Source of the DNA: Planctomyces sp. SH-PL62
GTDB taxonomy: Bacteria > Planctomycetota > Planctomycetia > Planctomycetales > Planctomycetaceae
Length of the DNA: 64,000 bases
Direction: 5' to 3'
Assembly: GCA_945905295.1 (NCBI GenBank)
Contig: CAMDPX010000006.1
Location: forward strand, 22-64,021
A model generated the notes under the pieces. The model saw nothing but the letters and a program-made list of their open reading frames with translations. It did not search any database and had not been told where the DNA came from. Positions 3,204-44,241 of this stretch are shown piece by piece. The position numbers and the translations under genes are program-made. The first letter of the stretch is position 1. Each line of letters opens with the position of its first letter.

Positions 3204-3241
3204 GGAGTCTTGCCCCCAATTCCTCACCACGGATTCATCTT

Positions 3242-5806: not shown

Positions 5807-7801
5807 ATGACCAACAACAAGTCTGCATCAACCGCAACGACTCAGCCGGGCGACGAGCATCGCTTTGACAAGTGGATCGCGTTGCTGGCCTTGATCGCGA
5901 TCAGCGGGTATCTGGTCGTGAGATTCGGCGGCCACGCGGATGACTCGCTCGGCCCATTCACGTTGACCGAATGGCCGTTGATCACCGCGCTGGCGGGAGG
6001 CGGTCTGCCGCTGGTGGCCGAGCTGACTTGGAAACTGGTACGTCGCGAGTTCGGCTCGGACCTTTTGGCCGGCATCTCGATCGTTACGTCGATCGTTTTG
6101 GGCGAGTACCTCGCGGGGACGCTCGTCGTGCTGATGCTCTCTGGCGGCGAGGCGCTCGAAGCCTATGCCATGCGGAGCGCGTCGTCGGTCCTCGCCGCGT
6201 TGGCCCGGCGCATGCCGTCGCAAGCTCATCGCAAAACAAACGAGACGATTCACGATGTCGCGGTCGATCAAGTCGTCGTCGGCGACACGCTGCTGGTGTT
6301 TCCGCACGAAGTGTGTCCGGTCGACGGTACGGTGCTCGACGGGCACGGCACGATGGATGAGTCGTTCCTCACCGGCGAACCGTATCTGATGCCGAAGTCC
6401 TCCGGCTCGACGGTCATCTCCGGCGCACTGAATGGCGAAGCGGCGTTGACGATCCGAGCGGACAAGCTCGCGGTCGATTCGCGGTACGCTCAGATCATGC
6501 ACGTCATGCGCGCGGCCGAAGAGCGTCGCCCGCGCCTGCGTCGCTTGGGCGATCAACTCGGCGCGTTCTACACACCGCTGGCGGTCGGACTCGCGTTGCT
6601 GGCATGGGGGCTAAGCGGTGACGTGCATCGGTTCCTCGCCGTGTTGGTCGTCGCGACACCCTGCCCGCTGCTGATCGCGATTCCGGTAGCGATCATCGGT
6701 TCGATTTCGTTGGCGGCTCGACGCGGCATCATCATTCGCGATCCGTCGGTACTCGAACGGATTGAGACCTGTCGCACGGCGATCTTCGACAAGACCGGCA
6801 CACTGACGTACGGGCAACCGGCGCTGACCGAGATCATCGTCGGAGACGGGGTCGGGAGTCTTTTTCAGGTCGGCCCAATGTCAGCAGAATTGCATCGCGA
6901 ACTGGATGGCCGACCTGAGAAAGACTCCCGACCCCTTTCTGCGGACAAAGCGTTGTCGCTGATCGGAAGCGTCGAGCGGTACTCAAAGCATCCGCTCGCG
7001 GCGGCGATCCTGAACGTCGTTCGCGAGCGACACCTCGCGCTGCAAGACGCCACTGAAGTTCACGAACTTCCCGGCCAAGGATTGACCGGTGTTGTCGCTG
7101 GTCGCCGCATTCGCATCACTAGCCGAGGCAAGCTGGTCGGGACGGAGTCCCAACCTACAACCGTCGACCTCCCGCCGCAGGCGGCCGGGATGGAGTGCAT
7201 TGCGATTATCGACGACCTGATCCCGGTGACTTTGCGGTTCCGCGATCAGCCGCGAGCGGATGGGGCGTCGTTCGTGAAACATCTCGCGCCGAACCATCAC
7301 TTCCAGCGGGTGATGATCGTCTCCGGCGACCGCGAGTCGGAGGTCCGTTATCTCGCCGATCTTGTCGGCATCCACGAAGTCCACTTCAGCCAATCGCCCG
7401 AGCAAAAGCTGGCCATCGTGCGGGCCGAAACGCAACGAGCCAACACCGTCTTCGTCGGCGACGGGATCAACGATGCACCGGCACTGACGATCGCGACCGT
7501 GGGCATCGCGTTCGGCGGCAGCAGCGACATCACCTCCGAGGCCGCGCACGCCGTGATCCTCGACAGCTCGCTGAGCAAAGTGGACGAGTTGCTGCACATC
7601 GGCAAACGTCTGCGGCGGATCGCGCTGCAAAGCGCGGTCGGCGGAATGTTGCTGAGCCTCGTCGGAATGCTTCTCGCCGCGTCCGGTCACTTGCCGCCGG
7701 TCGCCGGCGCGATCGCTCAAGAAGTCATCGACTTGCTGGCCGTGTTGAACGCACTGCGCGCGGCGCGGTCGTCTGGAAGTCTGACGGATTTCGGCTCGTA
7801 G
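5807..7801 (+). CDS. heavy-metal P1B-type ATPase, TPCP-motif (P1B-5-like) subtype
   Basis: DKTGTLT phosphorylation motif, [11 protein letters not shown] hinge, TGEP-type actuator (FLTGEPYL), TM motif [11 protein letters not shown]. No N-terminal CxxC metal-binding domain and no C-terminal extension. Confidence 0.85.
6848..6935. repeat. intragenic palindromic element (GGGGTCGGG family) inside the ATPase CDS
   Basis: Arms GGGGTCGGGAGTCTTTTTCAGGTCGGCC (6848..6875) and GGCCGACCTGAGAAAGACTCCCGACCCC (6908..6935) match at 27 of 28 positions. Translated in frame as ...[30 protein letters not shown]... Confidence 0.85.
7135..7158. repeat. half-site of REP family A inside the ATPase CDS
   Basis: GGTCGGGACGGAGTCCCAACCTAC is identical to the right arm at 57395..57418. 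Translated as ...[10 protein letters not shown]... No left arm nearby. Confidence 0.8.
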
Positions 7802-17142: not shown

Positions 17143-20100
17143 TTATCGCTTCACGACGCACTCGTCGTGATTCAGTAATGCTTGAGCCAGCACCGTGGCG
17201 GCGGCCGCTTGAGGAACTGGAATCGTTGTGTCGCGCGGAGTCTGTCCGATCTTCAGAAGTTGCTCGGCCTCAGTCGCGTGCTGCGTGAAGTGATCGAGTT
17301 GCTCGCGATAGAGCTTCGTCACGATCTCCACTTCGCGAGCATCGGGGCGGCGGCTCAAGCAACGCAGGAAACCGTGTTCGATCATCGCCGGCAGTTCGCC
17401 CTTCGCGTCGCGATGCAGAGCTTCTCCGAGTACGCGGGCGGCTTCGACGTATTGGACTCCGTTGAGCAGGATCAAGGCTTGCAGCGGTGAGTCGGTCCGT
17501 TCGCGTTTGGCGATACAGACCGCTCGGCGCGGCGCGTCGAAGGCGACCATTGCTGGTGGCGGTCCCGTGCGACGCCAGTTCGTGTAGAGGCTGCGTCGGA
17601 AGACGCCGTCACCGGCAGTCGGTGCGGCGGGCTTGAACGATTCGCTCATCTCATAAGGGTTCACCGGCGGGCCGCCGAGTTGCCTCTTGAGCAGTCCAGC
17701 CGCCGCGAGTGCGTTGTCGCGAATCATCTCCGCCGGCAATCGGAATCGCGGCCCGCGCGCGAGCCATTCGTTGTCTGGATCGTCGGCCATCGTCTGTGCG
17801 TCAGCGAGACTCCGCTGCCGATACGTCTGGCTGAGGACGATCGTTTTCACGAGCCGCTTCAGATCCCAACCGCTGTCGATGAAGTCGAGCGCCAGCGCAT
17901 CCAACACCTCCGGATAAAGCGGTCGCGCCCCTTGACTGCCGAAGTCTTCCGACGTCTTCACGAGCCCACGTCCGAAGAGGCTCTGCCAAACGCGATTGAC
18001 CGTCACACGAGCCGTCAGTGGATGCCGTCGATCGGTCAACCACTTCGCGAGGCCGAGCCGATTGCGGGGCGCGTCTTCGGGGAACGGAGACAAAGACGCG
18101 GGAGTGCCGGCCTGCACTTCCTCGCGACGTTGCGCGTACTCGCCACGGAAGAGCACATACGCCTTCTTTGGCTGCGGCAGTTCTCGCATCACCATCAGTT
18201 CTTTGATGCCGTCGCCGAGCTTGTTGAGCTCCGCCCGCGCGGTTTGTAACGCGGCGAGGTACACGGCCCATTCGGCATCGGCGGTCGCGAGGTAATAATC
18301 GAAGAGCTTCTCGCGTGTGGCTTGGCGATTCACGACCTCACGAATCTCGTCATCACGCGACACCGCTTCGGCCTCGAGATCCGTTAGCTCACGGCCAAAG
18401 ACCCGGAAGTCGTCGATCATGCCCCCCTTGAACCCGCGATCCCGGAACCGCTCGCCCAGCGAGATGTTGTCGCCACCGCCGCCGGTGATTTCTTTCGTCA
18501 GTTTGTCCTTCACGATCTCGACACCCGGTTGCCGAGCCAAGCGACGACCGTTGATGAACATCTTCAATCCGTCCGCACGGCTGCTGCCGTCCGAAGAGAC
18601 GACGACGTGCATCCATTCGTTGAGCGGCAGCTTGTCCGTGGCTGCGATCGAGACCGCATTGCCCGGCCAAAAATGGATCAGCGACCACTTCAAGCGTCCC
18701 TCTTCGATCAGCAGTTCGTAGCCTCGGCTCCCAGCATCGGTCCACGCTCGCGAGCGATGAAATACGACGGCACGGTCCTTCACATCGGGCGTCTGCAACC
18801 ACAATGCGACCGAGAACGGCTGATGCCGGCCGAAGTTCCCCAGCGGCAAATCGACAGGATCATCGCCAGTGAATTCGATCGCTTGTCCGTCGTGCCCAGA
18901 CACAAGTTTGTTCTCGCCGCGGAGCGTTGCCGGTTGGCCTGATTTCGTTTCGTTGGCAAGCTTCCCTTGATCGACCACATCGAACCGGAAGCGCGCGAGT
19001 TCCCCGATCACACTGGCATTGTTCGTCTTCGTGAGCGGCACGGCGCTAGCCGCCGGTGTTTGCTGAGGACCGGCGGCTAGCGCCTTGCCGCTCACAGGAC
19101 GGCTTCCGCGATTATCAACCTGACGATCAACAAACCACTTGTCGAATGCCTCGCGCCGCGACTCCCGCAGCTTCGGAGCGTGCCGCTCAAGCTCTGCGAC
19201 CTTTTCTTGCAGCACGACCAGACGCTGCTTGGTCGGGACATCGGACAGCGCCAACGTCGGCGTCGGCGGCGACTGCGTGAAGTATGAATACAGCCCCGCC
19301 TCGTCGATGTTCTGGAACATCGCGAAGAGCTGATAATACTCGCGCTGCGAGATCGGATCGTACTTGTGATCGTGGCAGCGGCAGCATTCAAAGGTCAGGC
19401 CGAGGAACGTCGTCGCGAAAGTCTGCACGCGGTCGGCGACGTACTCGACGCGATACTCCTCTTCGACGCTGCCCCCTTCCGACTCTTGCTGGTGCAGGCG
19501 ATTGAAAGCGGTCGCGAGGATCTGCTCGTCGGTGGCGTCCGGCAGCAAGTCACCGGCCAGTTGCCAGGTGATGAATTGATCGAACGGTTGATTGGCGTTG
19601 AACGCCCGCACGACCCAGTCGCGCCACGGCCACATCTCCCGCTCGCGATCGACCTGAAAGCCGTAGCTGTCCGCATACCGCGCGGCGTCGAGCCAATCGG
19701 TCGCCATCCGTTCGCCGTAATGCTCGGACGCCAGCAGCCGATCGACGAGCCGTTCGTTAGCGCCGGGTGCTTGATCATTCAGAAAGGCTTCGACCTCGGC
19801 CGGAGTCGGGGGCAGCCCGGTCAGATCAAAGGTGAGTCGTCGAATGAGCGTCGTGCGATTCGCTTCCGGTTGCAGCCGCAGCCCACGTTTGGCGAGGCTC
19901 CCCTGAATCAAAGCGTCGATGCCCGTCGCGGGACCGGGCTTGAGCGGAATGAGCGACCAATGGTTCTCGTACTCGGCCCCTTGCTCGATCCAGAGTCGCA
20001 GCGTCCCGATTTCCTGCGCCGTGAGTTTGTCGAGCTTCGATGACGACGGCGGCATGTGCTCATCGGCATCCGTACTGAGAATCCGCCGCACGAGTTCGCT

Positions 20101-26752: not shown

Positions 26753-26762
26753 TCCCAAGTCA

Positions 26763-26860
26763 GGGGTCGGGTGTTCGGTTTTTCGGAATTGGCGGGATGA
26801 AGTCTCACTTGCAACCCAAGCGTCGTCCCGCCAATTCCGAAAAACCGAACACCCGACCCC
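26763..26860. repeat. REP-like palindromic element, GGGGTCGGG family
   Basis: GGGGTCGGGTGTTCGGTTTTTCGGAATTGGCGGGA ... TCCCGCCAATTCCGAAAAACCGAACACCCGACCCC. Confidence 0.9.
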
Positions 26861-26888
26861 GGATCCGAAACCTCAAACGAGAACAACC

Positions 26889-27895: not shown

Positions 27896-28017
27896 AACTT
27901 CAGATTGATATTCGCGCGGCACTTATGTCCTTTTGGTCGCTTTTGTCCCTTGGAATGGACGAAAAGGACCGAAGCGACCAAAGGCATCGCGCGATTATCA
28001 ACCTGAAGAACAATCAG
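27896..28017. repeat. long imperfect palindromic element (TTTTGGTCGCTT / GTCCTTTTCGTCC family)
   Basis: Outer arms CTTCAGATTGATATTCGCGCG / CGCGCGATTATCAACCTGAAG. Inner motifs are shared with 31137..31196. Confidence 0.75.
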
Positions 28018-28916: not shown

Positions 28917-29240
28917 CTACCGCAAGTCGCGTCGCTTCAGCGGTGCCTGACCGGGGCCACGGATCGCCAGAACTCGGACGTCTGACTCGACGATCGTAAA
29001 CACCATCCGGTACATGCGGCCGCGTGGAGTCTTGAAGAGCGTTTGTCGAATCTCGCGCTTCACGAGCGAATTCTCCGGTGCCAGTGCGCAGCCGTCTGCA
29101 TTTCGTTCCAACTGGTCGAGAGCCTTGTCGAACGCATCCAACCAACGATCCGCTCCCGAAGGAGACCGGTCGTTGAGCCAACGAGCAATCGCTTTGAATT
29201 GCCGATGCGCTCCTGGTTCCAGGATGACTCGAAAACTCAT
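28917..29240 (-). CDS. type II toxin, RelE/ParE superfamily
   Basis: 107 aa. MSFRVILEPGAHRQFKAIARWL...RMYRMVFTIVESDVRVLAIRGPGQ is ParE-like. The upstream gene overlaps it by 4 nt. Confidence 0.75.
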   Translation of the reverse strand: MSFRVILEPGAHRQFKAIARWLNDRSPSGADRWLDAFDKALDQLERNADGCALAPENSLVKREIRQTLFKTPRGRMYRMVFTIVESDVRVLAIRGPGQAPLKRRDLR

Positions 29241-29494
29241 GACTTCGCTCGTGAGCCAAGAGATTGCCGCATTTCAGCGCTCGCGTCGCGGGCCAGAATG
29301 CCCGTCTCCGGACGTATCTCGTCCAGTGTCTGCTGAATTTCCGCGGCACTCGCTTCCAATTCGCCCGGCAGCGGGTGACTCGCACGCCACTGATCCAACA
29401 CCTCTTCGGGAGTCAAATCCTCCGCATCGCCATCCACCTGCTGACTGAGGAATTCCCGGAACTGACGTAGATCGGCTTGAATGGCTGGCTGCAT
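29237..29494 (-). CDS. putative cognate antitoxin
   Basis: 85-aa acidic protein whose stop overlaps the toxin start (29237..29240). The call rests on position and size, not homology. Confidence 0.55.
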   Translation of the reverse strand: MQPAIQADLRQFREFLSQQVDGDAEDLTPEEVLDQWRASHPLPGELEASAAEIQQTLDEIRPETGILARDASAEMRQSLGSRAKS

Positions 29495-31136: not shown

Positions 31137-31196
31137 TTTGGTCGCTTGGGTCCTTTTCGTCCCTTCCTAGGGACGGAAGGGACGAAAAGGACCAAA
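31137..31196. repeat. palindromic element (GGTCCTTTTCGTCCCTTCC-TA-GGGACGGAAGGGACGAAAAGGACC)
   Basis: Near-perfect hairpin between the ABC ATPase and permease genes. Same family as 27896..28017. Confidence 0.85.
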
Positions 31197-31235
31197 GTGC
31201 CGCCAGGGTTAAAACGACAGAACATCACATCTCAG

Positions 31236-33297: not shown

Positions 33298-33349
33298 GTA
33301 GCCACGTTCGCCAGAACTTGGGAACCCACACTCTGGCGAGTGTGGCTAC
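33298..33349. repeat. REP-like element, family C (diverged copy)
   Basis: GTAGCCACGTTCGCCAGAACTTGGGAACCCACACTCTGGCGAGTGTGGCTAC. Its CTAC tail provides the TAG stop (33346..33348, minus strand) of the convergent gene. Confidence 0.85.
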
Positions 33350-35679
33350 GGGACTTTCGCCGCGCCTGCTTGTTGAAATCGAAACGGTGGCTGGCCGGTC
33401 AGAGTTTCGCTGGTCATGGTGGGGCACCAGTATTTTTCGACATGCGAAACGATCTGGTCCAGACCCTCGAAATGGTGACCGGGATCGCGATGAAATGAGT
33501 CGGTCAGGTCGCGACACAGAACGACGTTCTTCTTCAGAGAGACCATCTGCCGAATCCCAAACGGTCGGCCGAGGACGCAGCGATTGGTGTGGACGCCGAT
33601 GAGGATCACGTTGTCGATGCCTCGCTCTTGAAGCAGGTTGAAGACCTCCTGTCCGTTGGCGGTGATCGCGTCCGAGTCGTGAATCTTGATCGTGTCGATC
33701 TGCCGGTGCCAAACAATCCGCGACGGACCGCAAGGTTCGGGGGTGTCGCAAGAGCAGCCTCCCTTTTCCAGCTTGTCAGCCAACGGACCTTCGCGATCCG
33801 GATTGAAGTAGTTCCACTGAAACTTGACCGACGCCTCGGCCAGCGGCGCGTCGAGTGCTCGGCGACGCTGGGGAGCGTCCTTGTAGAACTCCATGCAATC
33901 GCTGGGAGCGTGAATGATGAGCGCCCCCTTGTCGCGCGCCGCGCTGATCGTGCGATTGGCGTGCGGTGCCATTTCGACAACGCGTTGCGCAGCGCTGCGA
34001 CAACTGTGCGTGTCCCACATGTCGATGATGATGACGGCGGTCTTTGCGAGATTCCAAGACTCCTGTTTCTCAACGACCCGGAACTGATCCGGCTGACCTT
34101 CGACTTTGATTTGTTGCCGAGTCGTGACGTTTAAGCTCGCCGTTGACCGGTCGGCGGCGCGGCCGACGAACTGCATGGCGTAGAGGTCTGCATCGCGAAG
34201 CACGAATCTCAGGCGGACGGTTTTTCCGGCGAGGCGGCTGACATCGCTACCGGTCTTCCAGGTGACGGTGCGGTTGAGCGTGTCACCGAAAAGGGGTGAG
34301 CAGTCTTCGAGCGTGAAGCCGGGATGCGGCGTGCCGGCCGCGTCTTGAAGCTCGACGCGGATGTCGCCGGCGGCGCTCGTCGCGAAGTTCAGCGTCAACT
34401 TGTCGCCGGTGAAGGTCAGCGGTTTGGTGATGACTTCTCCGCCGCTCAGCGGGGCATTGATCGAAACGAAACCGTCCAGACGCAGCGTGTAGCGACGCAG
34501 CGAATTCCCTTTGCCGTGCCACGAGCCTTCGGCCGCATACAGTGACATCTCGCGCGGAGCTCCTGGCAATGAAGACGCTGTTTCCACGCCCTGCGACGCG
34601 ATGAACTGATGCCCGTAAAGCCAAGTCGCCGGTCGCTCCGGACCGGGCCGCAGAAAGGCTTCGTTCCAGCGCTCGAAATGAACTCCGTTGCGACTGGCCA
34701 TGAGCAAGCCTTCGGTCAACGCGGTGCCGTATCTCTGGTTCGCTGTTGCGCGTTGCTCGCGACGTTCCAGCTCCGGCAAGGCTCGCATCGAGTCGGACCA
34801 GCCGCGATCGACATATCGCGTCGGGAAGCCGATCAGCAGGTGCGGAGCTCGGAAGTACGGTGCGACCTGATTCGTGTAGAGGTGCTCGGCAGGCGAGTCT
34901 TTGTAAGTGAGATCGGCTTCGTGCTCCCACTTCAAGAAGTCGCGCGAGGTCGCGGTGCGGATCGCTCGAAAGCCTTCGGGCTTCCAAACCTTTCCGGTCG
35001 TGATACCGCCGGTGAAGGTGCGGAAGTAAGCCCGATAGACACCAGCCGTCGCGTCCCAGAAGGCGAGGTTCTGCGAATCAAACGCTCCCTCGGTGACAAC
35101 CGGCGGCTCGCGCATCAGCGACCAATGAATGCCGTCGGCGGAGTGAAACGCGAACAGCCCGCCTTGATCCGCGGTTCCGCCCAACGCTTTGTAACGCGAC
35201 TCCTTGGGGCAGTCGGCTCGCGAATCGAGGAACGGAGCGAAGTTGTGCGTACCGACTCCGGTCCAGATGACGTTGTTCTGCTTCGAGCCGTCGATGTCAT
35301 GCAGCCCGAGTTCCGGTTTGGTGAAGGTGACGCCGTCGCGACTCTCGGCGTAGCAGTAGACCTCGCGGCCAGTCTTGAGCCGCCCGTTTTCAACTCCCAG
35401 CGCCGAGCCTCGGTAATACAACCGGTAACGATCGCCGTCGTGAATGATCGAGTGATACCCACTTCCGGCCCCTTCCCACGGAGCATCATGGACGATGGCC
35501 ACGTCGCGCGGTGTCGGATGCTGCAACTGCCGCCGCGCGTCCTTGAGCGACTCGATCAAGTGGCCGTCGACGAACAGCTCGCGCCGCGAGCCAATGTCGA
35601 TCGGTCCATCCGCTGTGAGAGGCGACTCGGTCCAAACCATCAACAGGAGCGTCGTGAGACCGATCAATAAGCGTTGCAT
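33346..35679 (-). CDS. secreted fusion protein: glycoside-hydrolase-like beta-propeller N-terminal region + isochorismatase-family (cysteine hydrolase) C-terminal domain
   Basis: Start at the ATG at 35679 (MQRLLIGLTTLLLMVW). N-terminal region has DAPWEGAGSGYHSIIHDGDRYRLYYRG...YCYAESRDGVTF...FHSADGIHW. C-terminal region has AVIIIDMWDTHSC...VILIGVHTNRCVLGRPFGIRQ. Confidence 0.7.
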   Translation of the reverse strand: MQRLLIGLTTLLLMVWTESPLTADGPIDIGSRRELFVDGHLIESLKDARRQLQHPTPRDVAIVHDAPWEGAGSGYHSIIHDGDRYRLYYRGSALGVENGRLKTGREVYCYAESRDGVTFTKPELGLHDIDGSKQNNVIWTGVGTHNFAPFLDSRADCPKESRYKALGGTADQGGLFAFHSADGIHWSLMREPPVVTEGAFDSQNLAFWDATAGVYRAYFRTFTGGITTGKVWKPEGFRAIRTATSRDFLKWEHEADLTYKDSPAEHLYTNQVAPYFRAPHLLIGFPTRYVDRGWSDSMRALPELERREQRATANQRYGTALTEGLLMASRNGVHFERWNEAFLRPGPERPATWLYGHQFIASQGVETASSLPGAPREMSLYAAEGSWHGKGNSLRRYTLRLDGFVSINAPLSGGEVITKPLTFTGDKLTLNFATSAAGDIRVELQDAAGTPHPGFTLEDCSPLFGDTLNRTVTWKTGSDVSRLAGKTVRLRFVLRDADLYAMQFVGRAADRSTASLNVTTRQQIKVEGQPDQFRVVEKQESWNLAKTAVIIIDMWDTHSCRSAAQRVVEMAPHANRTISAARDKGALIIHAPSDCMEFYKDAPQRRRALDAPLAEASVKFQWNYFNPDREGPLADKLEKGGCSCDTPEPCGPSRIVWHRQIDTIKIHDSDAITANGQEVFNLLQERGIDNVILIGVHTNRCVLGRPFGIRQMVSLKKNVVLCRDLTDSFHRDPGHHFEGLDQIVSHVEKYWCPTMTSETLTGQPPFRFQQAGAAKVP

Positions 35680-35999
35680 GGCGTTTCCCTTCCGTCGGAG
35701 TGGAGTAATGACTGGCGTGGCGATTGTTGCCTTTCGTTCTGCGAAAGGACACCGGAGGAGCAAACTGTAACGCCCGACAGCGGTTCTGATTTCGCAGGTC
35801 ATGCAGGTCGTGCGCGATGCGCGGTCCGACCTGGTCCAGGCTACGCATTCCTTCCCATAAACATGCTGCGGCGAAGCGTCTGCGCGGTTAGGTAGAAGAA
35901 CTTCCCTGCGAGCAATACGAACAGTTCGGAGTCACGCGTGACTGCGTTCGAACACCGGATCAAATGCGATGCCGCAGCCGGATATCCAAGAGGCGAAAC

Positions 36000-38900
36000 A
36001 TGGCGAAGAGACGAACTGCGAACAGAAAGCCGAAACCCATTCCAGTGGCCGCGATCGAGCAAGCCGATCCGGCACCACTGAAGGTCAAACCTTGGACCTT
36101 CCTGCTGTATTTCTGCGGAGATACCAGCGCGTTGAGGGAGGAAGTTCGAAAAGATGTCCTGGAAGTGGCGAAGGCGTGCAAAGCGGGTCTCGATCAAGTG
36201 CATGTGGTTTTGCAGCACGATTCACCCGATGGAGGAGCACGGCGCTACATTGGCTCGGACGGTCAATGGGTCAAGATCAACGAAGCTGATCCGGTGCGAG
36301 TCAACACCGGCGACCCCCAGGAAGCGATCGACTTTTTGACGTGGGGCTTGAAACTCGCTCCATCGCGGCACGTGGCCGTAATCTTTTCCGGGCAGGGGAT
36401 TCGCTTGAAATACGCGTTCGAGATACTTCAGCAACGCGACCTCTTTGTGAGAGGCCGATCCGCAACCAGCAAAAATCAAGACAGTCCCTTCGAAATCTCG
36501 GACTCATTCTCAATCTGTCACGATGAAGTGCATCGGGATGCACTCGACGTCACTCAGTTGAAGAGCATCCTGCAAGCCGTCACCACGTTGCTCGACCGTC
36601 CGGTTGATTTGGTCGTGTTCGATGCGGGCTGCACGGCATTCATCGAAATTGCTTATCAGCTCCGAAGCGTCGCGCTAGCTATGGTGGCTCCGCGCGGATT
36701 GATGCCGGATTCCGGTCTGCCCTATCTCGACGTGTTGCGGAGCTGCAACAAGCTCATCCAAAAGATCGAACGGCTCGAACGGACGCGTATCGCGAAGGTC
36801 GGCCAAGAGGCAAAGGTGCCTTCCGAATGGAGTCCGGAGCGTGTCGCCATCATCATTTCACGAGTCATCGGGCGGGTCGCCGCAAAGGCGAAGTATCCCG
36901 CAAAGGAAATCGCTCCGGAGCTCGTCGTCGTCGACTTGCAGCATACAGCCGCAGCGGTGCAACTCGTAGATTACGTCGCGGCGACGCTACTGAATCAACT
37001 CGGTGATTGGCACGTTCTCAATGCCGTGCGCCGCACACAGAGCTTTATTCGGCTAACAGCAGAACTGGGCGTGTGGCATTCATCACCTAACGGCGCTAGC
37101 GGGGATCTTCCCTCAGCGGACTTGTTCCGATGGCTATGCACTCTTGAAGCCCATCTCGAAAGCGAAGAGGCCCAAACTCCAGCAAGATTCGGTCAATTGA
37201 TGCGACTGCGGCATGTGCGACAAGTGGTTCGAAACGCACGCCTAGAATTGGTTCCGCAACGCTACCTGAACCTAGTCAAGCGGCGGTTGACTGATTTCAT
37301 GGGATCCATCAGTCACAAGGTTCTCAAAGAATTCTCGATCGCGATGGATGCTCGTTGGACCGACGCCGAAATCACGCAGGTGCTGAACAAAGTCAAGACC
37401 ATCGAGAGTTGGTTCGGCGGCTGCAAAGGGAATGACAAGGACGTCATTCCGTTGTGGGTCAAAACGTACTCGCTCTTACCCAGCTTTGGTTTATTGATCG
37501 TCCTTCCGCTGTCACAGAATTTAGACGCAGAACGCGAGACGTCTTCCAGCATCATTCGCGGGTCCAACTACAACTCGCTCGACTTCTGCCGCGATGCCGG
37601 TTGGACGAATTTCCTGGGAGCACTGCAACTCATCCTCGAAAAGCCGCATGCGCTGTGGCGGATGATTAACTCGTTCCTCATCAGTCAGAACGAGCAGACT
37701 CGCAGTTCGACGCTGCGACGCTTTCTCGAATCCAGCAATGTTTTGTCGGGCATCTCCGAGCAGTTTCGAGGATTTCGGTCGGAGTTAGCCATTACATTGA
37801 GCTTGGATGCGAGTTCGGTTGAATCAAGCTCGCAATCCGACGCTGACGAAGGCGGTATCTTTCGCGGAACTGCGGACCGCGAAGAGTTCATCGTGCGATT
37901 GCAGAGTTTTGACGGCTCGCCCCGCATTCAGGAGAACCTCTGTCCGATTTATCGCTCAACGACGCAGAGTGCGCTGCGAAGTTTCGAACGACTACTCAAC
38001 AGCGGCGAATCCGTGGATGACGCGATGGCCGTACTCAGACAGCTCGGCCGGTCGTTGGGAGAAGACATCATCCAAGACCTCGGAGAGCCGCTGTCGGAAG
38101 AACGCAGACGGCTGGAGAATGATACCTCGGTCGCACCGCATCTGCGGTTTCAGATTCCGATGCACCTCATGCGCTATCCGTGGGAGCTGATGAGCGACCA
38201 AGAAGGTTTGTTATTCGAGCGGTTTGCCATGGGCCGGCAGTTCTTCACTCGCTCGCGATTGCCCCGTCAGCAGCCTCGATCGGAAACGGCCCTGCGGGTG
38301 TTGATCCTAGGTGATCCGCAGTTCGATTCCGGCTTCTGGAATAAGAATCGTCCCCATCAACTCTCCGGGGCAGTCCGTGAGGCCCATCACATTGTCGATC
38401 TGTTTCGCGAGTTTCGCGATGACCTCGAAGGTGTCGTCGAGGTGTGGATCGAGGCGCATATCGAGTGCGTCATCACCGTCAGTCAAGTACGTGATCTGAT
38501 CAGGAGCGGACAGTACGACATCATTCATTTCGCAGGGCATGCTTGCTTCAACGAAGATGACCCAGAAGGGAGTGCTTGGCTGCTGAGTGATGGACTGCTG
38601 CACGCCCGCGAGATTCGCAACACTTTGCATTGGACCCCGACGCCTCCGTGGCTGGTCTATGCCAATGCCTGCGAGGCTGGCATGGAAGGGGGCGACTCGG
38701 CACGCAGCGACGGATTGCTGCGTTATCAAGGCGATGTCTGCGGGCTCGGCTCGGCTTTCACCAATCACGGAGTTCGCGGTTATCTAGCTCCGCTTTGGCC
38801 GATCAACGATGACGTCGCATTGCAGATTGCCTCGGACTTTTATCGCGGTTTGCTCATTAAGCGATTCAGTCTGGGCGAGGCACTCTTCAAGGCCAAACAA

Positions 38901-40673
38901 GACGCGAAGACCCGCCTGCTGGGCATCGACGGTCGGGCGCAAGGTTCGCTGTTGCCGGCGCAGGTCGCACTGAGTTGGGCAAGTCTGGTGCTTTACGGCG
39001 AACCGACGCAGCGGCTGTTTCAATCGCTCTGGAGTGGTTCGACTTCCGCTGAGGAAATCGAGCCAGACCTTCACGCCATGCACCAAGACGATCCATCGAA
39101 TGATCATTTCGAACGTTGGACTCCGACAAGCTGGAAGCCACAGCAACGTCGTCGCCGATTCATGCCGCGCATTCAGCAAGCGTCCGCTCGCTCGATTGTG
39201 GATGAAATGAATGGAATGGGCCTCACGGCTGGCGATGCACCGGTCGTTCGCGGTGGCGATGGCAAGTGGATCCAACCTCATAAGGCGCTTGAACTCGTCG
39301 AAGTCAACGGCATCCGATTTTGGCAAATTGTCGATCCGGCCACCGGACTAAAATCCCCTCTGCCGGGGTCCAACTTGCAAGCTCAGGTTGAAAGTCCGGT
39401 GGTCCGGGACCGGCTCGGCTGTAATCGCGGCTTCACCGACTATGTCCGAGTGATCGGCAAGTGGGCGGTGAATCTGGTGGTAGGTACCGCGCAAGACCCG
39501 CTCGAACTGCAACTCGCGCGGCAGTTCGATAAGGGAATCGTCCCGGAAGAACGGCTGGTCGAGGTCCGCGAAGATAGCGCGCTCACGACGCTGAGGCCCG
39601 GACAATGGAAGAAACTCGGACCTCAGGATCGAGTGATCCTCATCATTCACGGCACTTTCAGTCAGGCGAAATCTCCCGTGAATGGCTTTGACTTTGACGC
39701 AGAGAAGCGACCGTCCAAATTCTTTCGCGACCTCACCACTGCCTGGGCGAAGCAAAACAAGACCGAGGTTCAGCCCACATTGCGCGTCCTTGCTTTCGAC
39801 CATTGGACGCTCTCGAAGTCGCCGCTCGATAATGCCGCGGACATGGCGAAAGCCCTATACGATCTCGACCCGCATTTACTCGATGCAGGTCGACTCGACT
39901 TGATCGTGCATAGTCGCGGCGGGCTTGTGGCTCGGTCGTTTGTTGAACTTACTTTTGAAACGGCTCAAGAACGGACATTTCCTGTCAATCAACGTTGCGC
40001 GGCCGTCCGCCGAGTGATTTTCATGGGCACACCCAACGCCGGCACTCAGTTGGCCAACCCCGTGAATGCCGGTCGGCTCGCCGACTTCTTGGTGAACTTA
40101 GCCCACCTGGACGAATTCGGTTTCTTCGCGCGGATGAGTGGTTTGCTGGCTCAAGTGGTAGTCCATGAGGAGCTCAGCAAGATCCCCGGATTGCGGGCAC
40201 AGAATCCCATTAACCGAGATAAGGAGGGGGAGCTGTTACATCGGTTGCACCACAAACCCACGACGGTTTTTGACGACGGCGACAAACTCAAAGTAGGACA
40301 AGAGAAGAAGTATTGGTGCGTGGCCGCGAACTACGAACCCTTCGACGACAAAGGCGTGACGGACCTCACTGGCATCGGCGAACACTTAAAAGCTGTCGGC
40401 TTAGATGAAGCCTTCGATGCGTTCTACAACGTCACGAACGACCTCGTCGTCGATACGCACGGCGTCTGGGCGTTCCGCAAAGAGTCGCAACAGATGCTGG
40501 AGACAACCGGCCCGCTGCCGGGCACGCAGGTGCTGCTCTACAACCCGACGCCCGCTTCGACCAAAGAACCGTCCAACGCGCAACGAGTCCGCGCCGTGCG
40601 AGTGCATCACTGCAACCTCTTCATGAAGCGTGAGGTCCGACAATTCGTGCAAGACATCGTGCTCGAGAAGTAG
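36000..40673 (+). CDS. 1557-aa multidomain protein: clostripain (C11)-like module with His->Gln, helical linker, CHAT caspase-like protease domain, C-terminal alpha/beta-hydrolase (lipase/esterase-like)
   Basis: - C11-like: WTFLLYFCGDTS, VHVVLQHDSP, NTGDPQEAIDFLTWG, AVIFSGQG (Gln codon 36393..36395 where family members carry the catalytic His), VVFDAGCTAFIEIAYQL.
- CHAT: YDIIHFAGHACF (His 38538..38540) and LVYANACEAG (Cys 38670..38672), plus LAPLWPINDDVA.
- Hydrolase: VILIIHGTF and LIVHSRGGLVA (Ser 39912..39914).
- GC is about 52-56% in spot counts versus about 62-68% in neighbours. Confidence 0.75.
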   Translation: MAKRRTANRKPKPIPVAAIEQADPAPLKVKPWTFLLYFCGDTSALREEVRKDVLEVAKACKAGLDQVHVVLQHDSPDGGARRYIGSDGQWVKINEADPVRVNTGDPQEAIDFLTWGLKLAPSRHVAVIFSGQGIRLKYAFEILQQRDLFVRGRSATSKNQDSPFEISDSFSICHDEVHRDALDVTQLKSILQAVTTLLDRPVDLVVFDAGCTAFIEIAYQLRSVALAMVAPRGLMPDSGLPYLDVLRSCNKLIQKIERLERTRIAKVGQEAKVPSEWSPERVAIIISRVIGRVAAKAKYPAKEIAPELVVVDLQHTAAAVQLVDYVAATLLNQLGDWHVLNAVRRTQSFIRLTAELGVWHSSPNGASGDLPSADLFRWLCTLEAHLESEEAQTPARFGQLMRLRHVRQVVRNARLELVPQRYLNLVKRRLTDFMGSISHKVLKEFSIAMDARWTDAEITQVLNKVKTIESWFGGCKGNDKDVIPLWVKTYSLLPSFGLLIVLPLSQNLDAERETSSSIIRGSNYNSLDFCRDAGWTNFLGALQLILEKPHALWRMINSFLISQNEQTRSSTLRRFLESSNVLSGISEQFRGFRSELAITLSLDASSVESSSQSDADEGGIFRGTADREEFIVRLQSFDGSPRIQENLCPIYRSTTQSALRSFERLLNSGESVDDAMAVLRQLGRSLGEDIIQDLGEPLSEERRRLENDTSVAPHLRFQIPMHLMRYPWELMSDQEGLLFERFAMGRQFFTRSRLPRQQPRSETALRVLILGDPQFDSGFWNKNRPHQLSGAVREAHHIVDLFREFRDDLEGVVEVWIEAHIECVITVSQVRDLIRSGQYDIIHFAGHACFNEDDPEGSAWLLSDGLLHAREIRNTLHWTPTPPWLVYANACEAGMEGGDSARSDGLLRYQGDVCGLGSAFTNHGVRGYLAPLWPINDDVALQIASDFYRGLLIKRFSLGEALFKAKQDAKTRLLGIDGRAQGSLLPAQVALSWASLVLYGEPTQRLFQSLWSGSTSAEEIEPDLHAMHQDDPSNDHFERWTPTSWKPQQRRRRFMPRIQQASARSIVDEMNGMGLTAGDAPVVRGGDGKWIQPHKALELVEVNGIRFWQIVDPATGLKSPLPGSNLQAQVESPVVRDRLGCNRGFTDYVRVIGKWAVNLVVGTAQDPLELQLARQFDKGIVPEERLVEVREDSALTTLRPGQWKKLGPQDRVILIIHGTFSQAKSPVNGFDFDAEKRPSKFFRDLTTAWAKQNKTEVQPTLRVLAFDHWTLSKSPLDNAADMAKALYDLDPHLLDAGRLDLIVHSRGGLVARSFVELTFETAQERTFPVNQRCAAVRRVIFMGTPNAGTQLANPVNAGRLADFLVNLAHLDEFGFFARMSGLLAQVVVHEELSKIPGLRAQNPINRDKEGELLHRLHHKPTTVFDDGDKLKVGQEKKYWCVAANYEPFDDKGVTDLTGIGEHLKAVGLDEAFDAFYNVTNDLVVDTHGVWAFRKESQQMLETTGPLPGTQVLLYNPTPASTKEPSNAQRVRAVRVHHCNLFMKREVRQFVQDIVLEK

Positions 40674-40737: not shown

Positions 40738-43176
40738 CTAAGCTAGCGCCGTCGCCTCACCGTCGGATGGCATCGACCACGGAACCCAGACGAGGGCGAC
40801 TTGGCTGATCGTGATGTCAGACTTCTTGGGTTGCAGCGTGACCTCTTCCAATTCGATCGCGGTGGGATCGACGTGAGCGGAGAGCTTCTCGGTTTCGGCT
40901 TTGAATTCCGCCTCGAGCGCGGCCAACCGTTGTTGCACCGCTTCGAGATTTTCTTCGGCGTAACCGATGTCAGTGCGTTCTTTGGCCAGCTTGCCGGCCG
41001 AGCGTGCTGCTGTGGCCGCTTTGCTGACATTGGTCACGCTCAGTGTCCTCTTGCCGAGGAACGCTCCCAGCAGTGACGATCCCACGGTGAGCATCGTCCC
41101 CCAGGTTTGTGACTTGGCTTGTTCTTCTTCTTTGGCTTTACGTTGCTCGGCTTTGCGAAGTTGTTCGTGCAGAGCGGTGACTTTCGGAGCGTATTTCTGA
41201 CGCAGCTTCTCGACGGCGAGGTCGCGCTCCTCGCGCAGCACTTGGCTGAGTCGCGAACGAAAGTCCCCTTCGTTTTCGTCGGCGCGAGAGACCGCCTTCG
41301 GCGATTTGCATTTCCAGACGGTCAAGCGGTGGACTCGATAGAGATGGTCTTTCAACGCTGTAGTCAGAGTCGCGTACTTCTTGGGCTTCGCGAGATCGGC
41401 GGGAAGCGGCGCGAATGCGGCTCCGCCGGCGGGCGTCTTTTCCAAATCAGGCGGGCCATCGTGCGAGAGTTCGCCGTCGTCCCAGGGATCGAGCGAAACT
41501 TCATCGGCGACGGGAGCGAGAATCGAAACCGCGTCCCAGACATCGACGTCGGCTGTCGTCTTTACGAAGTGAGCCTTCGCGATGCCGAGCAGCGCCGGCC
41601 GATAGACGAACTTGTCTCCGGAGTCCGGATCGCGGCGCGCGGGGATGAAGAACTCGACGATGTCTGGTGACAGCACCGGACGATGTTCGCTGACTCCGTC
41701 GGCTGACGCTGAGGCCGTGTCGGCAGTCGTGGTTGAGGAGGTCGGCTGCGACGACTCCCGGCGTGTTCGCATCAGCGAGTCGATCTGGTCTCGCGACAGC
41801 GGGCCGCGCAGATACGACAGCGACCAGCGCGTTTGAAAAATGCTCGGTGCGTCGTCGTGGACGTTGTTCATCACGAAGACTCGCTTGCCGAGTCCTGACA
41901 GGATCGAGTCCATCGCGGATCGGTCGAAGCTGTGTCCCGTTGAAGCGGATGCCCCTTCCAGTCCATCGAGCACGCGGGCTTTGTCCCGCTCGGTCTGCAA
42001 GCGGCCGAGAAACCAGGTGCCGCAGTTCGACAGCCCCTTGTAGTCGAGATCCACCGGGTTCTGCGTTGCGAGCACGATGCCGAGTCCGAACGCGCGAGCT
42101 TGCTTCAGCAGCGTTAGCATCGGGGTCTTCGAGGGCGGGTTCGCGGTTGGTGGGAAATAGCCGAAGACTTCGTCCATGTAGAGCAGACATCGCAAGCTGG
42201 ACGTCCCCGACTGTGACCGCATCCAGGCGAGCACTTCGTTGAGGAAGATCGTCACGAAAAACATCCGCTCGGAATCGGACAGGTGTGAGATCGACATGAT
42301 CGAAAGCCGAGGTTTACCGTCCGCCGTCCAGAGCAGGCGTTGAATGTCGAGCGCTTCCCCTTCCATCCAAGCCGAGAAGCCGGGCGACGCCAGCAAGTTG
42401 TTGAGCGTCATCGCCAGCGTGAAGCGTTCCGTCGCCGGGTAAAACGTGTCGAGGTCCAAAACGCCGACCTTCTTGAACGAAGGCGATTGAATCTCCCGAA
42501 TAAGCTGACCGAGATCGAGGTCTTTCTTCTCGCGCCAGGCACGGTCGAAGATGTTGGTCAGCAAGATCTGCTCGCGGCTGCGGATCGGGTCCGCGTCGAT
42601 GCCGAGCAACGCCAACAAACCGGCCGCCGCGCCGTTGACTCGCTCACGCATCGCGTCGCTGTTGTCGAGCACCGCTTGCGGCGGAGCTCCAAACGACCGC
42701 ACGACCGTCAGCGGCAAACCCGCCTGACTGCCGGGTGTGTAGATCGCGACGTCGCACGCCTCGCGAAACTTCTGGATGCGTGAGCCGTCTTGATCCCACG
42801 CGGCGAGTCCGTCTTTCCAACTCTGCGCCGACTCAGCCGCAAATTGATCGGGCGTTAGGCCGCGCCGTGTCGCCTCAGACGCATCGACCCACGGCCGGAA
42901 GTCGTCAGCCTTCAACTGCGGAAATGTCAGCAGCAGATTTCCGAGGTCTCCTTTCGGATCGATGATGAGCGCGGGGACGCCGTCGATCGCGGCCTCTTCC
43001 AGCAGGCTCAAACACAACCCAGTCTTACCGCTGCCGGTCATACCGACGACGACCGCGTGAGTCGTCAAATCCTTCGCGTCATACAGCAGGTAATCTGGCT
43101 TTGGCTGCTGAGCCGCGAGGTCGAAGTGTTTTCCGAGATAAAAGACTCCGAGTTTTTCATAGTCCTGACTGGGCAT
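40738..43176 (-). CDS. HerA/FtsK-superfamily P-loop ATPase (DUF87-like) with coiled-coil/TM C-terminal region
   Basis: Start at the ATG at 43176 (MPSQDYEKLGVFYLGK). Walker A VVGMTGSGKTG. Walker B LLYMDEVFGYFP. VLATQNPVDLDYKGLSNCGTWFLGRLQTERD. C-terminal EQRKAKEEEQ coiled coil and the hydrophobic stretch TWGTMLTVGSSLLGAFLG. Confidence 0.8.
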   Translation of the reverse strand: MPSQDYEKLGVFYLGKHFDLAAQQPKPDYLLYDAKDLTTHAVVVGMTGSGKTGLCLSLLEEAAIDGVPALIIDPKGDLGNLLLTFPQLKADDFRPWVDASEATRRGLTPDQFAAESAQSWKDGLAAWDQDGSRIQKFREACDVAIYTPGSQAGLPLTVVRSFGAPPQAVLDNSDAMRERVNGAAAGLLALLGIDADPIRSREQILLTNIFDRAWREKKDLDLGQLIREIQSPSFKKVGVLDLDTFYPATERFTLAMTLNNLLASPGFSAWMEGEALDIQRLLWTADGKPRLSIMSISHLSDSERMFFVTIFLNEVLAWMRSQSGTSSLRCLLYMDEVFGYFPPTANPPSKTPMLTLLKQARAFGLGIVLATQNPVDLDYKGLSNCGTWFLGRLQTERDKARVLDGLEGASASTGHSFDRSAMDSILSGLGKRVFVMNNVHDDAPSIFQTRWSLSYLRGPLSRDQIDSLMRTRRESSQPTSSTTTADTASASADGVSEHRPVLSPDIVEFFIPARRDPDSGDKFVYRPALLGIAKAHFVKTTADVDVWDAVSILAPVADEVSLDPWDDGELSHDGPPDLEKTPAGGAAFAPLPADLAKPKKYATLTTALKDHLYRVHRLTVWKCKSPKAVSRADENEGDFRSRLSQVLREERDLAVEKLRQKYAPKVTALHEQLRKAEQRKAKEEEQAKSQTWGTMLTVGSSLLGAFLGKRTLSVTNVSKAATAARSAGKLAKERTDIGYAEENLEAVQQRLAALEAEFKAETEKLSAHVDPTAIELEEVTLQPKKSDITISQVALVWVPWSMPSDGEATALA

Positions 43177-43314
43177 GACGACATCCGATCGGGTGCGAAA
43201 CAAAAAAGTGCGACGGCGATTCTACTGATCGGCGATGTTCGGCCAAGCAGCGAGGCGTTGGCTTGGTGGATGTGTCCGAGTTCAGACTTTAGTCTGTCGG
43301 CTCGCCGTCGAATC

Positions 43315-43392
43315 GGCGAGCCGTCGGGCGTCAGCCCCCGGACGCATTCCGAAACCGCGACTTGTCCGGGAGCTAACGCTGCCCGGCTCGCC
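43315..43392. repeat. REP-like element, family E (GGCGAGCCGTCGGGCGTCAGCCCCCGG ... CCGGGAGCTAACGCTGCCCGGCTCGCC)
   Basis: Imperfect inverted repeat in the divergent spacer. Shares GGCGAGC...GCGTCAGCCCCC with 46678..46755. Confidence 0.8.
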
Positions 43393-43397
43393 GGAGA

Positions 43398-44180
43398 ATG
43401 ACTGAGATGCCCGAATACACTCGCATGGAATTGATGATCTGTTCGGCCGCGCGGTGGCTGGAGGACGGCGCGATGGTCGTCGTCGGCACCGGTGCTCCGT
43501 GTGCGGCGGCGATGTTGGCTCAAAAGACCACCGCGCCGAATCTCACGCTGCTGTTCGAGGCGGGTGGCATCGGACCTCTGTTGCCGAGGATGCCGATCAG
43601 CGTGGGGGACTCGCGGACGTTCTATCGCGGCCTGATGGCGACCAGCATGGCCGACATCATGGAGACGTGTCAGCGCGGCATGGTCGAGTACACGTTTCTT
43701 GGCGGAGCACAAATCGATCGCTTCGGCAATTTGAACTCGACGCAGATTGGTGACGACTATCAGCATCCGAAGGTGCGGTTGCCCGGCAGCGGCGGCGCGA
43801 ACGATCTCGCATCGTTCTGCTGGCGCGTTCTCGTTCTGACTCCGCATGACAAGCGGCGGTTTGTCGAGCGCTGCGATTTCGTCACGACTCCGGGATACCT
43901 GACCGGTCCCGGCGCTCGTGAGGACGCGGGCCTGCCGCCGGGAACTGGGCCGTATAAGGTCATCACCGATTTGGCGGTGCTCGGCTTTGATGACGCGACC
44001 AAGCGGATGCAGGTCGAGTCGCTGCATCCGGGAGTCACTCTGCAAGAGGTCCGCGACCGCACCGGCTTTGAGTTGCTGGTGCGCGACCCGCTCGAAGCGA
44101 CACCGGCTCCGGATCCAACCGCTCTGGAGATTCTGCGGAATGAAGTCGATCCGCAGCGCTACATCATCGGCCGTGGGTGA
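43398..44180 (+). CDS. CoA-transferase beta subunit (glutaconate/3-oxoacid CoA-transferase family B)
   Basis: MELMICSAARWLEDGAMVVVGTGAP, LLFEAGGIG, LPGSGGANDL. No alpha-subunit gene is adjacent. Confidence 0.75.
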   Translation: MTEMPEYTRMELMICSAARWLEDGAMVVVGTGAPCAAAMLAQKTTAPNLTLLFEAGGIGPLLPRMPISVGDSRTFYRGLMATSMADIMETCQRGMVEYTFLGGAQIDRFGNLNSTQIGDDYQHPKVRLPGSGGANDLASFCWRVLVLTPHDKRRFVERCDFVTTPGYLTGPGAREDAGLPPGTGPYKVITDLAVLGFDDATKRMQVESLHPGVTLQEVRDRTGFELLVRDPLEATPAPDPTALEILRNEVDPQRYIIGRG

Positions 44181-44188
44181 GAGCGCTC

Positions 44189-44241
44189 GTAGTGACCCCA
44201 TTCATGGGGGCGAGAGCCGGACCCGATGAATCGGGTCACTA
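44189..44241. repeat. REP-like element (GTAGTGACCCCATTCATGGGG ... CCCGATGAATCGGGTCACTAC)
   Basis: GTAG/CTAC-terminated inverted repeat between convergent genes. Confidence 0.85.

Follow-up and report, generated by a model that had tools for sequence, protein, structure and literature searches.

Recent work on Craspase, SAVED-CHAT/PCaspase, and type IV Thoeris has identified caspase-like proteases as the executioners of bacterial immunity; to our knowledge, activation in all three proceeds through CRISPR or nucleotide signaling. In the type III-B CRISPR-CBASS hybrid of Haliangium ochraceum, SAVED-CHAT cuts PCaspase specifically and turns it on, and PCaspase then degrades many proteins and produces an abortive phenotype (Steens et al., bioRxiv 10.1101/2023.06.23.546230), and bacterial caspase-like executioners of the C14 family are promiscuous, Arg-specific proteases (bioRxiv 10.1101/2024.10.24.620036). 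Here, we analyze a gene (36000–40673, + strand; the CHAT gene) in a 64,000-nucleotide stretch of DNA from Planctomyces sp. SH-PL62 (contig CAMDPX010000006.1). This whole stretch is called the window below, and coordinates given without a locus label are positions within it. As judged from its sequence, the 1557-amino acid (aa) product joins a catalytically dead clostripain-like (C11) domain, a helical middle region, a CHAT protease with an intact dyad, and a lipase-like DUF7379 hydrolase.

We propose, with moderate confidence, that CHAT is the initiator protease of this protein, under the control of a sensor, that the tethered lipase is the executioner, and that the protein has a role in cell death or defense. 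It belongs to the CHAT and DUF7379 Pfam families and, by our rating, is kin to the caspase-like protease conflict systems, in an architecture that is undescribed: the literature searched contained no publication describing the pseudo-C11/CHAT/DUF7379 order, none of about 8 million papers mentions DUF7379, and combinations of the terms CHAT, C11, and C14 returned nothing relevant. Together with the lack of a PADLOC match, this agrees with a preliminary description of the window, made from its letters and open reading frames (ORFs), in which the architecture was not recognized as a described one. The family has a CHAT protease, paired or not with a metacaspase, and none of the CRISPR or nucleotide-signaling modules upstream; a pseudoprotease stands in the sensor position, and a lipase is a possible second executioner. 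If our proposal is correct, it would mean a new trigger for bacterial proteolytic cell death, a function for DUF7379, and a natural case of pseudo-caspase/caspase regulation outside eukaryotes; cultured carriers (Novipirellula rosea JCM 17759 and Allorhodopirellula solitaria CA85) make the family experimentally approachable.

Domain architecture of the CHAT gene product

A single uninterrupted plus-strand ORF occupies 35964–40673 when counted from its first ATG. We place the start at the ATG at 36000 because the resulting product (36000–40673, 1557 aa plus stop) is identical to database protein P0001 and begins with the MAKRR N terminus common to its homologues. The ORF list and the translation therefore agree with the preliminary description of one uninterrupted ORF of 1557 aa, and the motifs picked out there (HFAGHA, ANACEAG, and HSRGG) were all found, with the codons at 38538, 38670, and 39912 encoding exactly H847, C891, and S1305. 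The complete coding sequence reads, in order, pseudo-C11 domain, middle region, CHAT domain, linker, and DUF7379 hydrolase, and a Pfam scan of the protein found no domains beyond C11, CHAT, and DUF7379. Because a signal peptide and a hydrophobic segment are both absent (we also sought a Tat motif and transmembrane segments and found none; the maximum Kyte–Doolittle 19-mer is 1.43), the protein is predicted to be cytoplasmic.

The N-terminal domain (aa 1–340; 36000–37019, + strand) is a true clostripain homologue because the profile searches and the AlphaFold2 (AF2) model compared with Foldseek both match C11. Pfam Peptidase_C11 (PF03415) aligns to aa 171–333 at E 1.1e-12 (48.6–52.1 bits, cut-off 25.8), and a profile built from 14 N-terminal homologues retrieved clostripain (9cip) from the PDB at 7e-11, along with further C11 structures. 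The AF2 model of aa 1–700, with a mean predicted local distance difference test score (pLDDT) of 66.6 and a core at 80–93, matched the C11 proteases 6n9j, 6mzo, and 9cip at 1e-11 to 1e-10 in Foldseek, in alignments of up to 458 columns and with a TM score of about 0.5 normalized to the target. In the alignment to 6n9j, the catalytic-His motif WSHG lies over SGxG (SGQG in the window protein, with Gln132 at the His position; 36393–36395), and the catalytic-Cys motif FDAC lies over DxGx (with Gly210 at the Cys position; 36627–36629). Relatives carry Gln, Leu, Pro, or other residues at the His position, Gly210 is invariant in the core family, and among about 50 family members in which the C11 His and Cys were sought, none has both. 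Because both catalytic residues are replaced in the family, the module is predicted to be a pseudoprotease: a homologue of MEROPS C11 and not an active peptidase. Of the three hydrolase signatures of the preliminary description, only CHAT and DUF7379 can be active, and the protease/protease/lipase fusion proposed there is better described as a pseudoprotease/protease/lipase fusion, since C11 has lost its His and Cys.

A loop predicted to be disordered (aa 133–167; 36396–36500, + strand; AF2 pLDDT below 50 inside a confident core) separates the dead His position from a conserved strand, FSICHD, whose counterpart in the clostripain alignment is AICWDD. C11 enzymes carry a self-activation cleavage linker at this same position in the fold, and the residues flanking the loop (G133, I134, Y138, F170, C173, and D175) are invariant; from its position, the loop is a candidate cleavage linker. 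Compared with the clostripain family (PmC11, iotapain, and clostripain), the window protein shares fold and sequence over about 310–460 residues, including the C-terminal domain, and keeps the loop at the cleavage position, whereas the pseudo-C11 family has exchanged His for Gln, Leu, or Pro and Cys for an invariant Gly. The characterized C11 enzymes are secreted and stand-alone, while the window protein is predicted to be cytoplasmic and is fused to other domains.

Between C11 and CHAT, the preliminary description had placed about 450 aa of unassigned helical sequence. This stretch is indeed mainly helical in the AF2 model (pLDDT 75–90 for the helices to about aa 480) and has no Pfam match, but part of it belongs to the C11 C-terminal domain, over which the Foldseek alignments to clostripain extend. 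Searches of aa 321–700, and likewise of aa 1006–1217, against Pfam at E up to 5 gave no credible extra domain. The helical, family-specific middle region (aa 341–690; 37020–38069, + strand) is the fastest-evolving part of the protein: the ratio of nonsynonymous (dN) to synonymous (dS) divergence, ω, is 0.39 for aa 341–480, with windows at 0.6–1.0. A trough in nucleotide identity to the related planctomycete locus L001 lies at 36721–37520. We consider aa 341–690 a candidate sensor or regulatory module.

The CHAT caspase-like cysteine protease domain (aa 691–1005; 38070–39014, + strand) is matched by Pfam CHAT (PF12770) over aa 687–1000 at E 1.6e-31 (110.3 bits, cut-off 24; profile positions 4–288 of 289). 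Its dyad residues, His847 (HFAGHA; 38538–38540) and Cys891 (ANACEAG; 38670–38672), are invariant in every family member that covers them, in both the alignment and the survey, and the domain has an ω of 0.13. With the dyad intact, we predict that CHAT is an active protease. In the AF2 model of aa 681–1557 (mean pLDDT 63.1), the CHAT domain matched Csx29 TPR-CHAT (7zoq and 8eex, 2e-6 to 5e-6), SAVED-CHAT (8tl0, 7.5e-6), and caspases in Foldseek. Single-sequence PDB searches with the CHAT and hydrolase segments gave no matches, and only profile and fold searches gave any. Of the assignments in the preliminary description, C11 was supported by Pfam, the PDB profile search, and AF2 with Foldseek, and CHAT by Pfam and AF2 with Foldseek.

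CHAT is followed by a predicted disordered, Arg-rich linker (aa 1006–1065, KPQQRRRRFMPRIQQA; 39015–39194, + strand; AF2 pLDDT 29–36 over model residues 328–382). Here, the family alignment shows a semi-conserved basic motif, R-x-R...R[FIL]xxA. Because the bacterial C14 executioners are Arg-specific and promiscuous, this linker is, by analogy, a plausible candidate for a cleavage site. Next comes a small, family-specific, beta-rich linker domain (aa 1066–1212; 39195–39635, + strand; AF2 strands at pLDDT 60–79) that has no Pfam match and that a family-specific hidden Markov model finds in all hydrolase-bearing members.

The C-terminal DUF7379 alpha/beta-hydrolase (aa 1213–1557; 39636–40670, + strand) is matched by Pfam DUF7379 (PF24096) over aa 1213–1400 at E 1.2e-28 (100.8 bits, cut-off 33). 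It carries an oxyanion motif, HGTFS (H1217/G1218), the nucleophile Ser1305 in the HSRGG elbow (39912–39914), Asp1481 (40440–40442), and His1536/1537 (40605–40610). In the profile search, HSRGGLVA aligned with AHSRGGLVA of the putative lipase 7x2p, and further lipases were matched. The columns of S1305, D1481, and H1536/1537 are conserved in most members, with the Asp and His assigned by conservation alone, and the domain has an ω of 0.18. We conclude that the hydrolase is probably a Ser-Asp-His lipase/esterase-like enzyme whose predicted triad is intact in the window protein.

Distribution of the family and a recurrent C14 partner

With aa 1–700 as the query, 27 cluster representatives of 1.84 billion were found at E≤1e-30. 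Loosening the threshold to E≤1e-10 raised the number to 140, ordinary 400-aa C11 enzymes among them. A profile search of a 5.8-billion protein set, its depth limited by a word filter, added three distant proteins only. The family is rare, phylum-spanning, and patchy, with members in Planctomycetota, Verrucomicrobiota, Chloroflexota, Acidobacteriota, NC10, and Myxococcota.

All-against-all clustering of the ORFs of 59 loci identified a single recurrent neighbor, a ~280-aa Peptidase_C14 gene; the remaining clusters were antisense shadows and lineage-specific genes. The C14 gene is present at 24 of about 43 loci with enough upstream sequence, nearly always directly upstream of the large gene and on the same strand. 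Its product has intact HG and DCCHSG catalytic motifs and no leader peptide, resembles metacaspase p20 domains (4e-36), and shows 56–77% identity across phyla, as against 40–62% for the large protein. The statement in the preliminary description that there is no partner gene thus holds in the window, where tblastn with five partner C14 proteins found none (best E 0.26), but fails for the family; in the window clade, no C14 adjoins the large gene. The possibility that C14 is fused or hidden in the window was rejected, as the extra length of the planctomycete proteins consists of helical inserts.

An orthologous C14 (56–63% identity) also lies 31 bp upstream of a protein with the order DUF7379-LCAT-CHAT-TPR-S, which we call type B. 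Because C14 precedes this differently ordered protein as well, C14, CHAT, and DUF7379 form a recurring unit. At loci without C14, the hydrolase Ser is kept in 13/16, and at loci with C14, the Ser is missing (often Gly) or the whole domain is missing in 16/22 (Fisher p 0.0025, uncorrected). These counts are suggestive of C14 and the hydrolase being alternative executioners.

More distant relatives combine the same modules differently: EAD7-CHAT-C11 occurs with STAND/NACHT NTPases (P0018), and P0019 and P0020 join DUF7379 and CHAT with a TPR-S sensor. A related module lies on the megaplasmid of Ruegeria pomeroyi DSS-3, a model bacterium open to genetics (L095, 6398–13202). There, the CHAT-annotated SPO_RS20450 carries a DUF7379-like hydrolase at its N terminus, the next genes encode an AAA ATPase of 986 aa and a hypothetical protein, and an IS5 transposase is adjacent. 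At four Vicinamibacterales loci (L056, L059, L060, and L064, about 1–6000), two systems stand back to back in divergent orientation. One consists of C14 and a pseudo-C11/CHAT gene without the hydrolase on one strand, and the other of a second C14 and then a DUF7379-bearing gene, with a downstream CHAT match only in L064 (type-B-like).

Comparison with described systems

The window protein shares with SAVED-CHAT an intact CHAT dyad and a predicted fold that matches 8tl0. About half of the pseudo-C11 family has an adjacent stand-alone C14 with both catalytic motifs intact, and the initiator-to-executioner logic of the SAVED-CHAT/PCaspase cascade is plausible for the family. The window protein differs in having no SAVED domain (Pfam at E up to 5, searched by segments) and no cyclic-oligonucleotide synthase, in having a dead clostripain-like domain and helices at its N terminus and a lipase-like hydrolase at its C terminus, and in having no C14 partner anywhere in the 64 kb. 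At the family loci that were read, no CRISPR genes came to notice nearby, although no systematic search was made.

The best CHAT fold matches come from Craspase (Cas7-11/gRAMP with Csx29 TPR-CHAT). Csx29 and the window protein are both large and multi-domain, with a non-catalytic N-terminal region before a C-terminal CHAT domain, and by analogy we infer that this N-terminal region may regulate CHAT in the window protein as it does in Csx29. Unlike Csx29, the window protein has no TPR (by Pfam) and has an extra hydrolase; sequence similarity between Csx29 and the window CHAT domain is undetectable by HMMER. Neither Cas7-11 nor Csx30/31 occurs among the annotated neighbors, where the scan covered nine ORFs and did not look for cas genes or arrays in the rest of the window.

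With the TIR-caspase system of type IV Thoeris (bioRxiv 10.1101/2024.10.24.620036), the family shares a C14 protease of the same kind as its partner, and one type-B locus (L094, 244–1101 and 4158–10682, beside a flagellar cluster) has a TIR_2-domain gene about 3 kb away. It differs in that there is no TIR in the family operon, the proposed activator is a protease and not a small molecule, and the window has no C14. The NTPase-centered conflict systems (Kaur et al. 2020/2021, eLife; PMC8195603) share a domain vocabulary with the family: the distant relatives described above join CHAT and C11 with EAD7 and STAND/NACHT, or CHAT and DUF7379 with TPR-S, whereas an NTPase, an EAD, and a repeat sensor are all absent from the window protein. 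The passages of PMC8195603 that were searched make no mention of the pseudo-C11/CHAT/DUF7379 arrangement. As to gasdermin systems, C14 alone was recurrent in the clustering of 59 loci, in which no gasdermin-specific profile search was made. We conclude that the protein is not SAVED-CHAT, Craspase, or STAND-type, and is probably not gasdermin-associated, as the defining sensor domains are absent and the partners were unseen among the neighbors examined.

Genomic slot and evolution of the gene

Three further related planctomycete lineages (L001, L009, and L092) also have an orthologue upstream of the CoA-transferase gene. In L001 and L092, the two with sequence for the upstream flank, the neighbor on that side is again the secreted GH-like gene, and the transport and DUF1501/PSCyt genes around the orthologue are likewise those of the window. 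Because the orthologues share one syntenic slot, the gene predates the split of the four lineages. The intergenic flanks of the CHAT gene in the window are only 320 bp and 64 bp, and a scan for promoters and terminators around the gene found sites no more frequent than chance. By Pfam, the nine neighboring ORFs are transport, metabolic, HerA-like, or planctomycete DUF1501/PSCyt genes or have no match. The cargo on either side of the gene is variable: the window alone has a HerA-like ATPase, L009 has ORF6N, AAA, S8 peptidase, and Lipase_3 genes, and L092 has a Kelch protein, while the window also has a ParE pair and the isochorismatase-like extension of a neighboring gene.

Relative to L001, nucleotide identity is about 91% in the flanks and 61–87% in the CHAT gene, and protein identity is 94–98% and 73.5%, respectively. 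The dN of the gene (0.18) is about 7-fold that of the flanks (0.01–0.03), and its dS (0.65) is about 2-fold (flanks 0.24–0.38). The drop in identity begins and stops at the gene borders; within the gene, the N-terminal half diverges fastest, and CHAT and the hydrolase are conserved. The pairwise ω of 0.19–0.30 indicates that the gene is under purifying selection. The orthologue in L092, a more distant relative, carries single-base nonsense codons at 8174–8176 and 9977–9979 of that locus (TAA for Glu, GAA, and TAG for Gln, CAG) and is otherwise intact, though called as three genes; it is probably a recent pseudogene, or else a consensus or readthrough oddity. Because this relative carries two nonsense codons, the gene appears dispensable. 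In Methylomirabilis (NC10), the large gene has a dS equal to that of its flanks and an ω of 0.18, and its C14 partner has an ω of 0.075.

Proposed mechanism and alternative explanations

In the mechanism that we propose, the fast-evolving pseudo-C11/helical half would sense or regulate, keeping CHAT inactive until a trigger arrives. Activated CHAT would then act as the initiator by making specific cuts, and the tethered hydrolase would be the executioner, released or unmasked by a cut in the disordered linker. In lineages with C14, the 280-aa metacaspase-like protease would be the executioner instead or additionally, a route that would parallel the way in which SAVED-CHAT cuts PCaspase and turns it on. 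Because no C14 lies nearby and the predicted hydrolase triad is intact, the planctomycete clade would have a one-gene system that kills or arrests the cell, and its most plausible use would be defense against phage or other invaders. The preliminary description had suggested a self-contained abortive-infection or cell-death effector or, alternatively, a toxin precursor. We retain the former, again as a middling rather than a firm commitment, as the best reading because the domain repertoire is that of prokaryotic conflict systems; the latter fares poorly (see below). The pattern of evolution is that of an accessory or immune gene because dN is about 7-fold and dS about 2-fold that of the flanks, one relative bears nonsense codons, and the slots are variable.

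Several observations weigh against a defense or cell-death role. No family in PADLOC-DB v2 was matched by the protein at E up to 1, and none of the SAVED, CARF, STAND, or TPR sensor domains sought by Pfam was found in it. When phage and plasmid carriage was sought, no family member was found, only generic CHAT-domain matches. The flanks are metabolic or transport genes, so that the neighborhood evidence for defense is weak, and the two-gene unit of NC10, whose dS is ordinary and whose purifying selection is strong, is inherited vertically. The complementarity of C14 and the hydrolase falls to p = 0.11 once one acidobacterial lineage is collapsed. Almost everywhere ω lies below 1, and no more than a few 40-codon windows come close to that value, so that the data do not demonstrate positive selection; the candidate windows are at aa 241–300, 341–374, and 435–474. 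Finally, the AF2 models are of moderate confidence only (pLDDT 63–67), and the inter-domain arrangement and the cleavage sites are predictions.

A bolder version of the proposal, which we think rather unlikely, is a stand-alone caspase cascade with neither a nucleotide messenger nor an NTPase, running from a dead C11 sensor to CHAT and on to one of two interchangeable executioners, a tethered lipase (in the window) or a separate metacaspase (in other phyla). The sensor might, for example, be a decoy whose retained activation loop an invader's protease or inhibitor would cut or bind, thereby switching on CHAT and giving a three-tier, all-clan-CD, apoptosis-like module around a pseudoenzyme guard.

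The main rival to a defense effector is a housekeeping or developmental regulatory protease/lipase, in which CHAT would process specific substrates of the cell itself and the hydrolase would alter lipids or the acylation of proteins. Both would do so within normal physiology, be it a stress response, envelope or division control, or regulated self-lysis in bacteria with complex lifestyles. We regard this as possible but clearly the less probable account. HetF, a cyanobacterial CHAT protease that acts in heterocyst development and division, is an analogue, and a housekeeping role would suit the unchanging place of the gene in four planctomycete lineages, with transport and metabolic genes around it, the vertical inheritance and low ω values in Methylomirabilis, the absence of mobile-element hallmarks, of a PADLOC match, and of plasmid or phage copies, and the concentration of the family in phyla whose cell biology is complex (Planctomycetota, Verrucomicrobiota, Myxococcota, and Chloroflexota). 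It fits less well with a distribution that is patchy and rare across unrelated phyla, unlike that of a core function, with a 7-fold excess of dN over the flanks in the window clade, and with a relative that appears to be a pseudogene. The recurrence of the modules with the conflict-system domains EAD7, STAND, and TPR-S and the pairing with a metacaspase-like protease, which mirrors a known immune cascade, also speak for a defense effector over a housekeeping one.

A different suggestion is that the gene is a recently acquired foreign single-gene island, as its low GC had led the preliminary description to propose. The dip is real, but its size was overstated: the CHAT gene has a GC content of 56.6%, compared with 60.0% for the window and 59–63% for neighboring genes, rather than 52–56% against 62–68%. 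Even so, its GC ranks lowest among the 4.7-kb stretches of the 64 kb (0.7th percentile, about 2.7 standard deviations below the mean), its GC at third codon positions (GC3) is 65% compared with 69–80% across ten neighboring genes, identity to the nearest relative falls at its borders, dS is twice that of the flanks, and the spread across phyla implies deeper horizontal transfer. An insertion is nevertheless improbable. The gene occupies the same slot upstream of CoA_trans in L001, L009, and L092, and the L001 allele has a native-like GC3 of 74.6%. The neighboring ORFs scanned contain no integrase-type Pfam match, the only tRNA is 20 kb away, and repeats flanking the gene are short and at chance level, with no long ones. 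What differs between genomes is the neighboring cargo (the HerA-like ATPase, S8 peptidase/lipase, Kelch protein, and ParE pair). The low GC3 and the doubled dS agree better with an allele exchanged in situ by recombination, with relaxed codon usage, or with rapid divergence, and we therefore read the gene as an old resident locus whose allele was replaced by recombination or diverged fast, and not as a fresh insertion. More remote still, and in our view highly improbable, is a secreted or contact-dependent toxin precursor whose proteases would release a lipase toxin against other cells. Lipase- and esterase-type domains are common among antibacterial toxins, clan-CD peptidases, those of the C11 type included, serve as releasing peptidases in polymorphic toxins, and the upstream GH-like neighbor is secreted, with an N-terminal hydrophobic leader in the alignment. 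The CHAT gene product, however, has no signal peptide, Tat motif, or hydrophobic segment, and Pfam found no Rhs/RHS, type VI or type VII secretion system (T6SS, T7SS), filamentous haemagglutinin, or pre-toxin domain. No small immunity-like gene lies downstream, where the next gene is the convergent HerA-like ATPase that relatives lack, and the ORF clustering of 59 loci revealed no conserved small downstream gene. Moreover, the C11 module that would release the toxin is predicted to be dead, and the partner C14 proteins likewise have no leaders.

Neighboring genes and other observations

Tail-to-tail with the CHAT gene lies the gene for an 812-aa HerA-like ATPase (40738–43176, − strand), which PADLOC matches weakly to its mad8 and HerA models and whose C-terminal half has no assignment. 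The absence of this gene from L001, L009, and L092 marks it as a strain-variable insertion, and for that reason it was rejected as an obligatory partner of the CHAT gene. Imperfect 16-nt direct repeats near its ends (40753 and 43298/43384) may be due to chance. A 378-aa minus-strand ORF (43065–44201) was also rejected as a HerA partner, being the shadow of CoA_trans on the plus strand; CoA_trans (43407–44180, + strand) is 98% identical in protein to the L001 gene, and the shadow ORF has no Pfam match. In L009 (5583–11799), the interval from the CHAT gene to CoA_trans holds ORF6N, an AAA ATPase, a 923-aa S8 peptidase (Y4kK_2nd), and Lipase_3, which may be another accessory or defense-like set in the same hotspot.

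On the other side of the CHAT gene, the secreted GH-like gene (33346–35679, − strand) encodes a protein that is 95% identical to a 511-aa L001 protein over 509 residues. At its C terminus, the window version of this GH-like protein runs on for another ~270 aa, which show an isochorismatase-like match, so that close relatives differ by the gain or loss of a domain. The gene for a ParE-like toxin, with a small partner gene upstream of it (about 28917–29494, − strand), lies between shikimate dehydrogenase and ABC transporter genes; the pair is also present in L010 and is missing at the same spot in L001. Intergenic sequences of 65–104 nt at 19030–19095, 26760–26863, 27916–27982, and 31137–31203 are palindromic repeats of the REP-like kind: they show matches to one another or to themselves in both orientations, and related contigs contain them as well.

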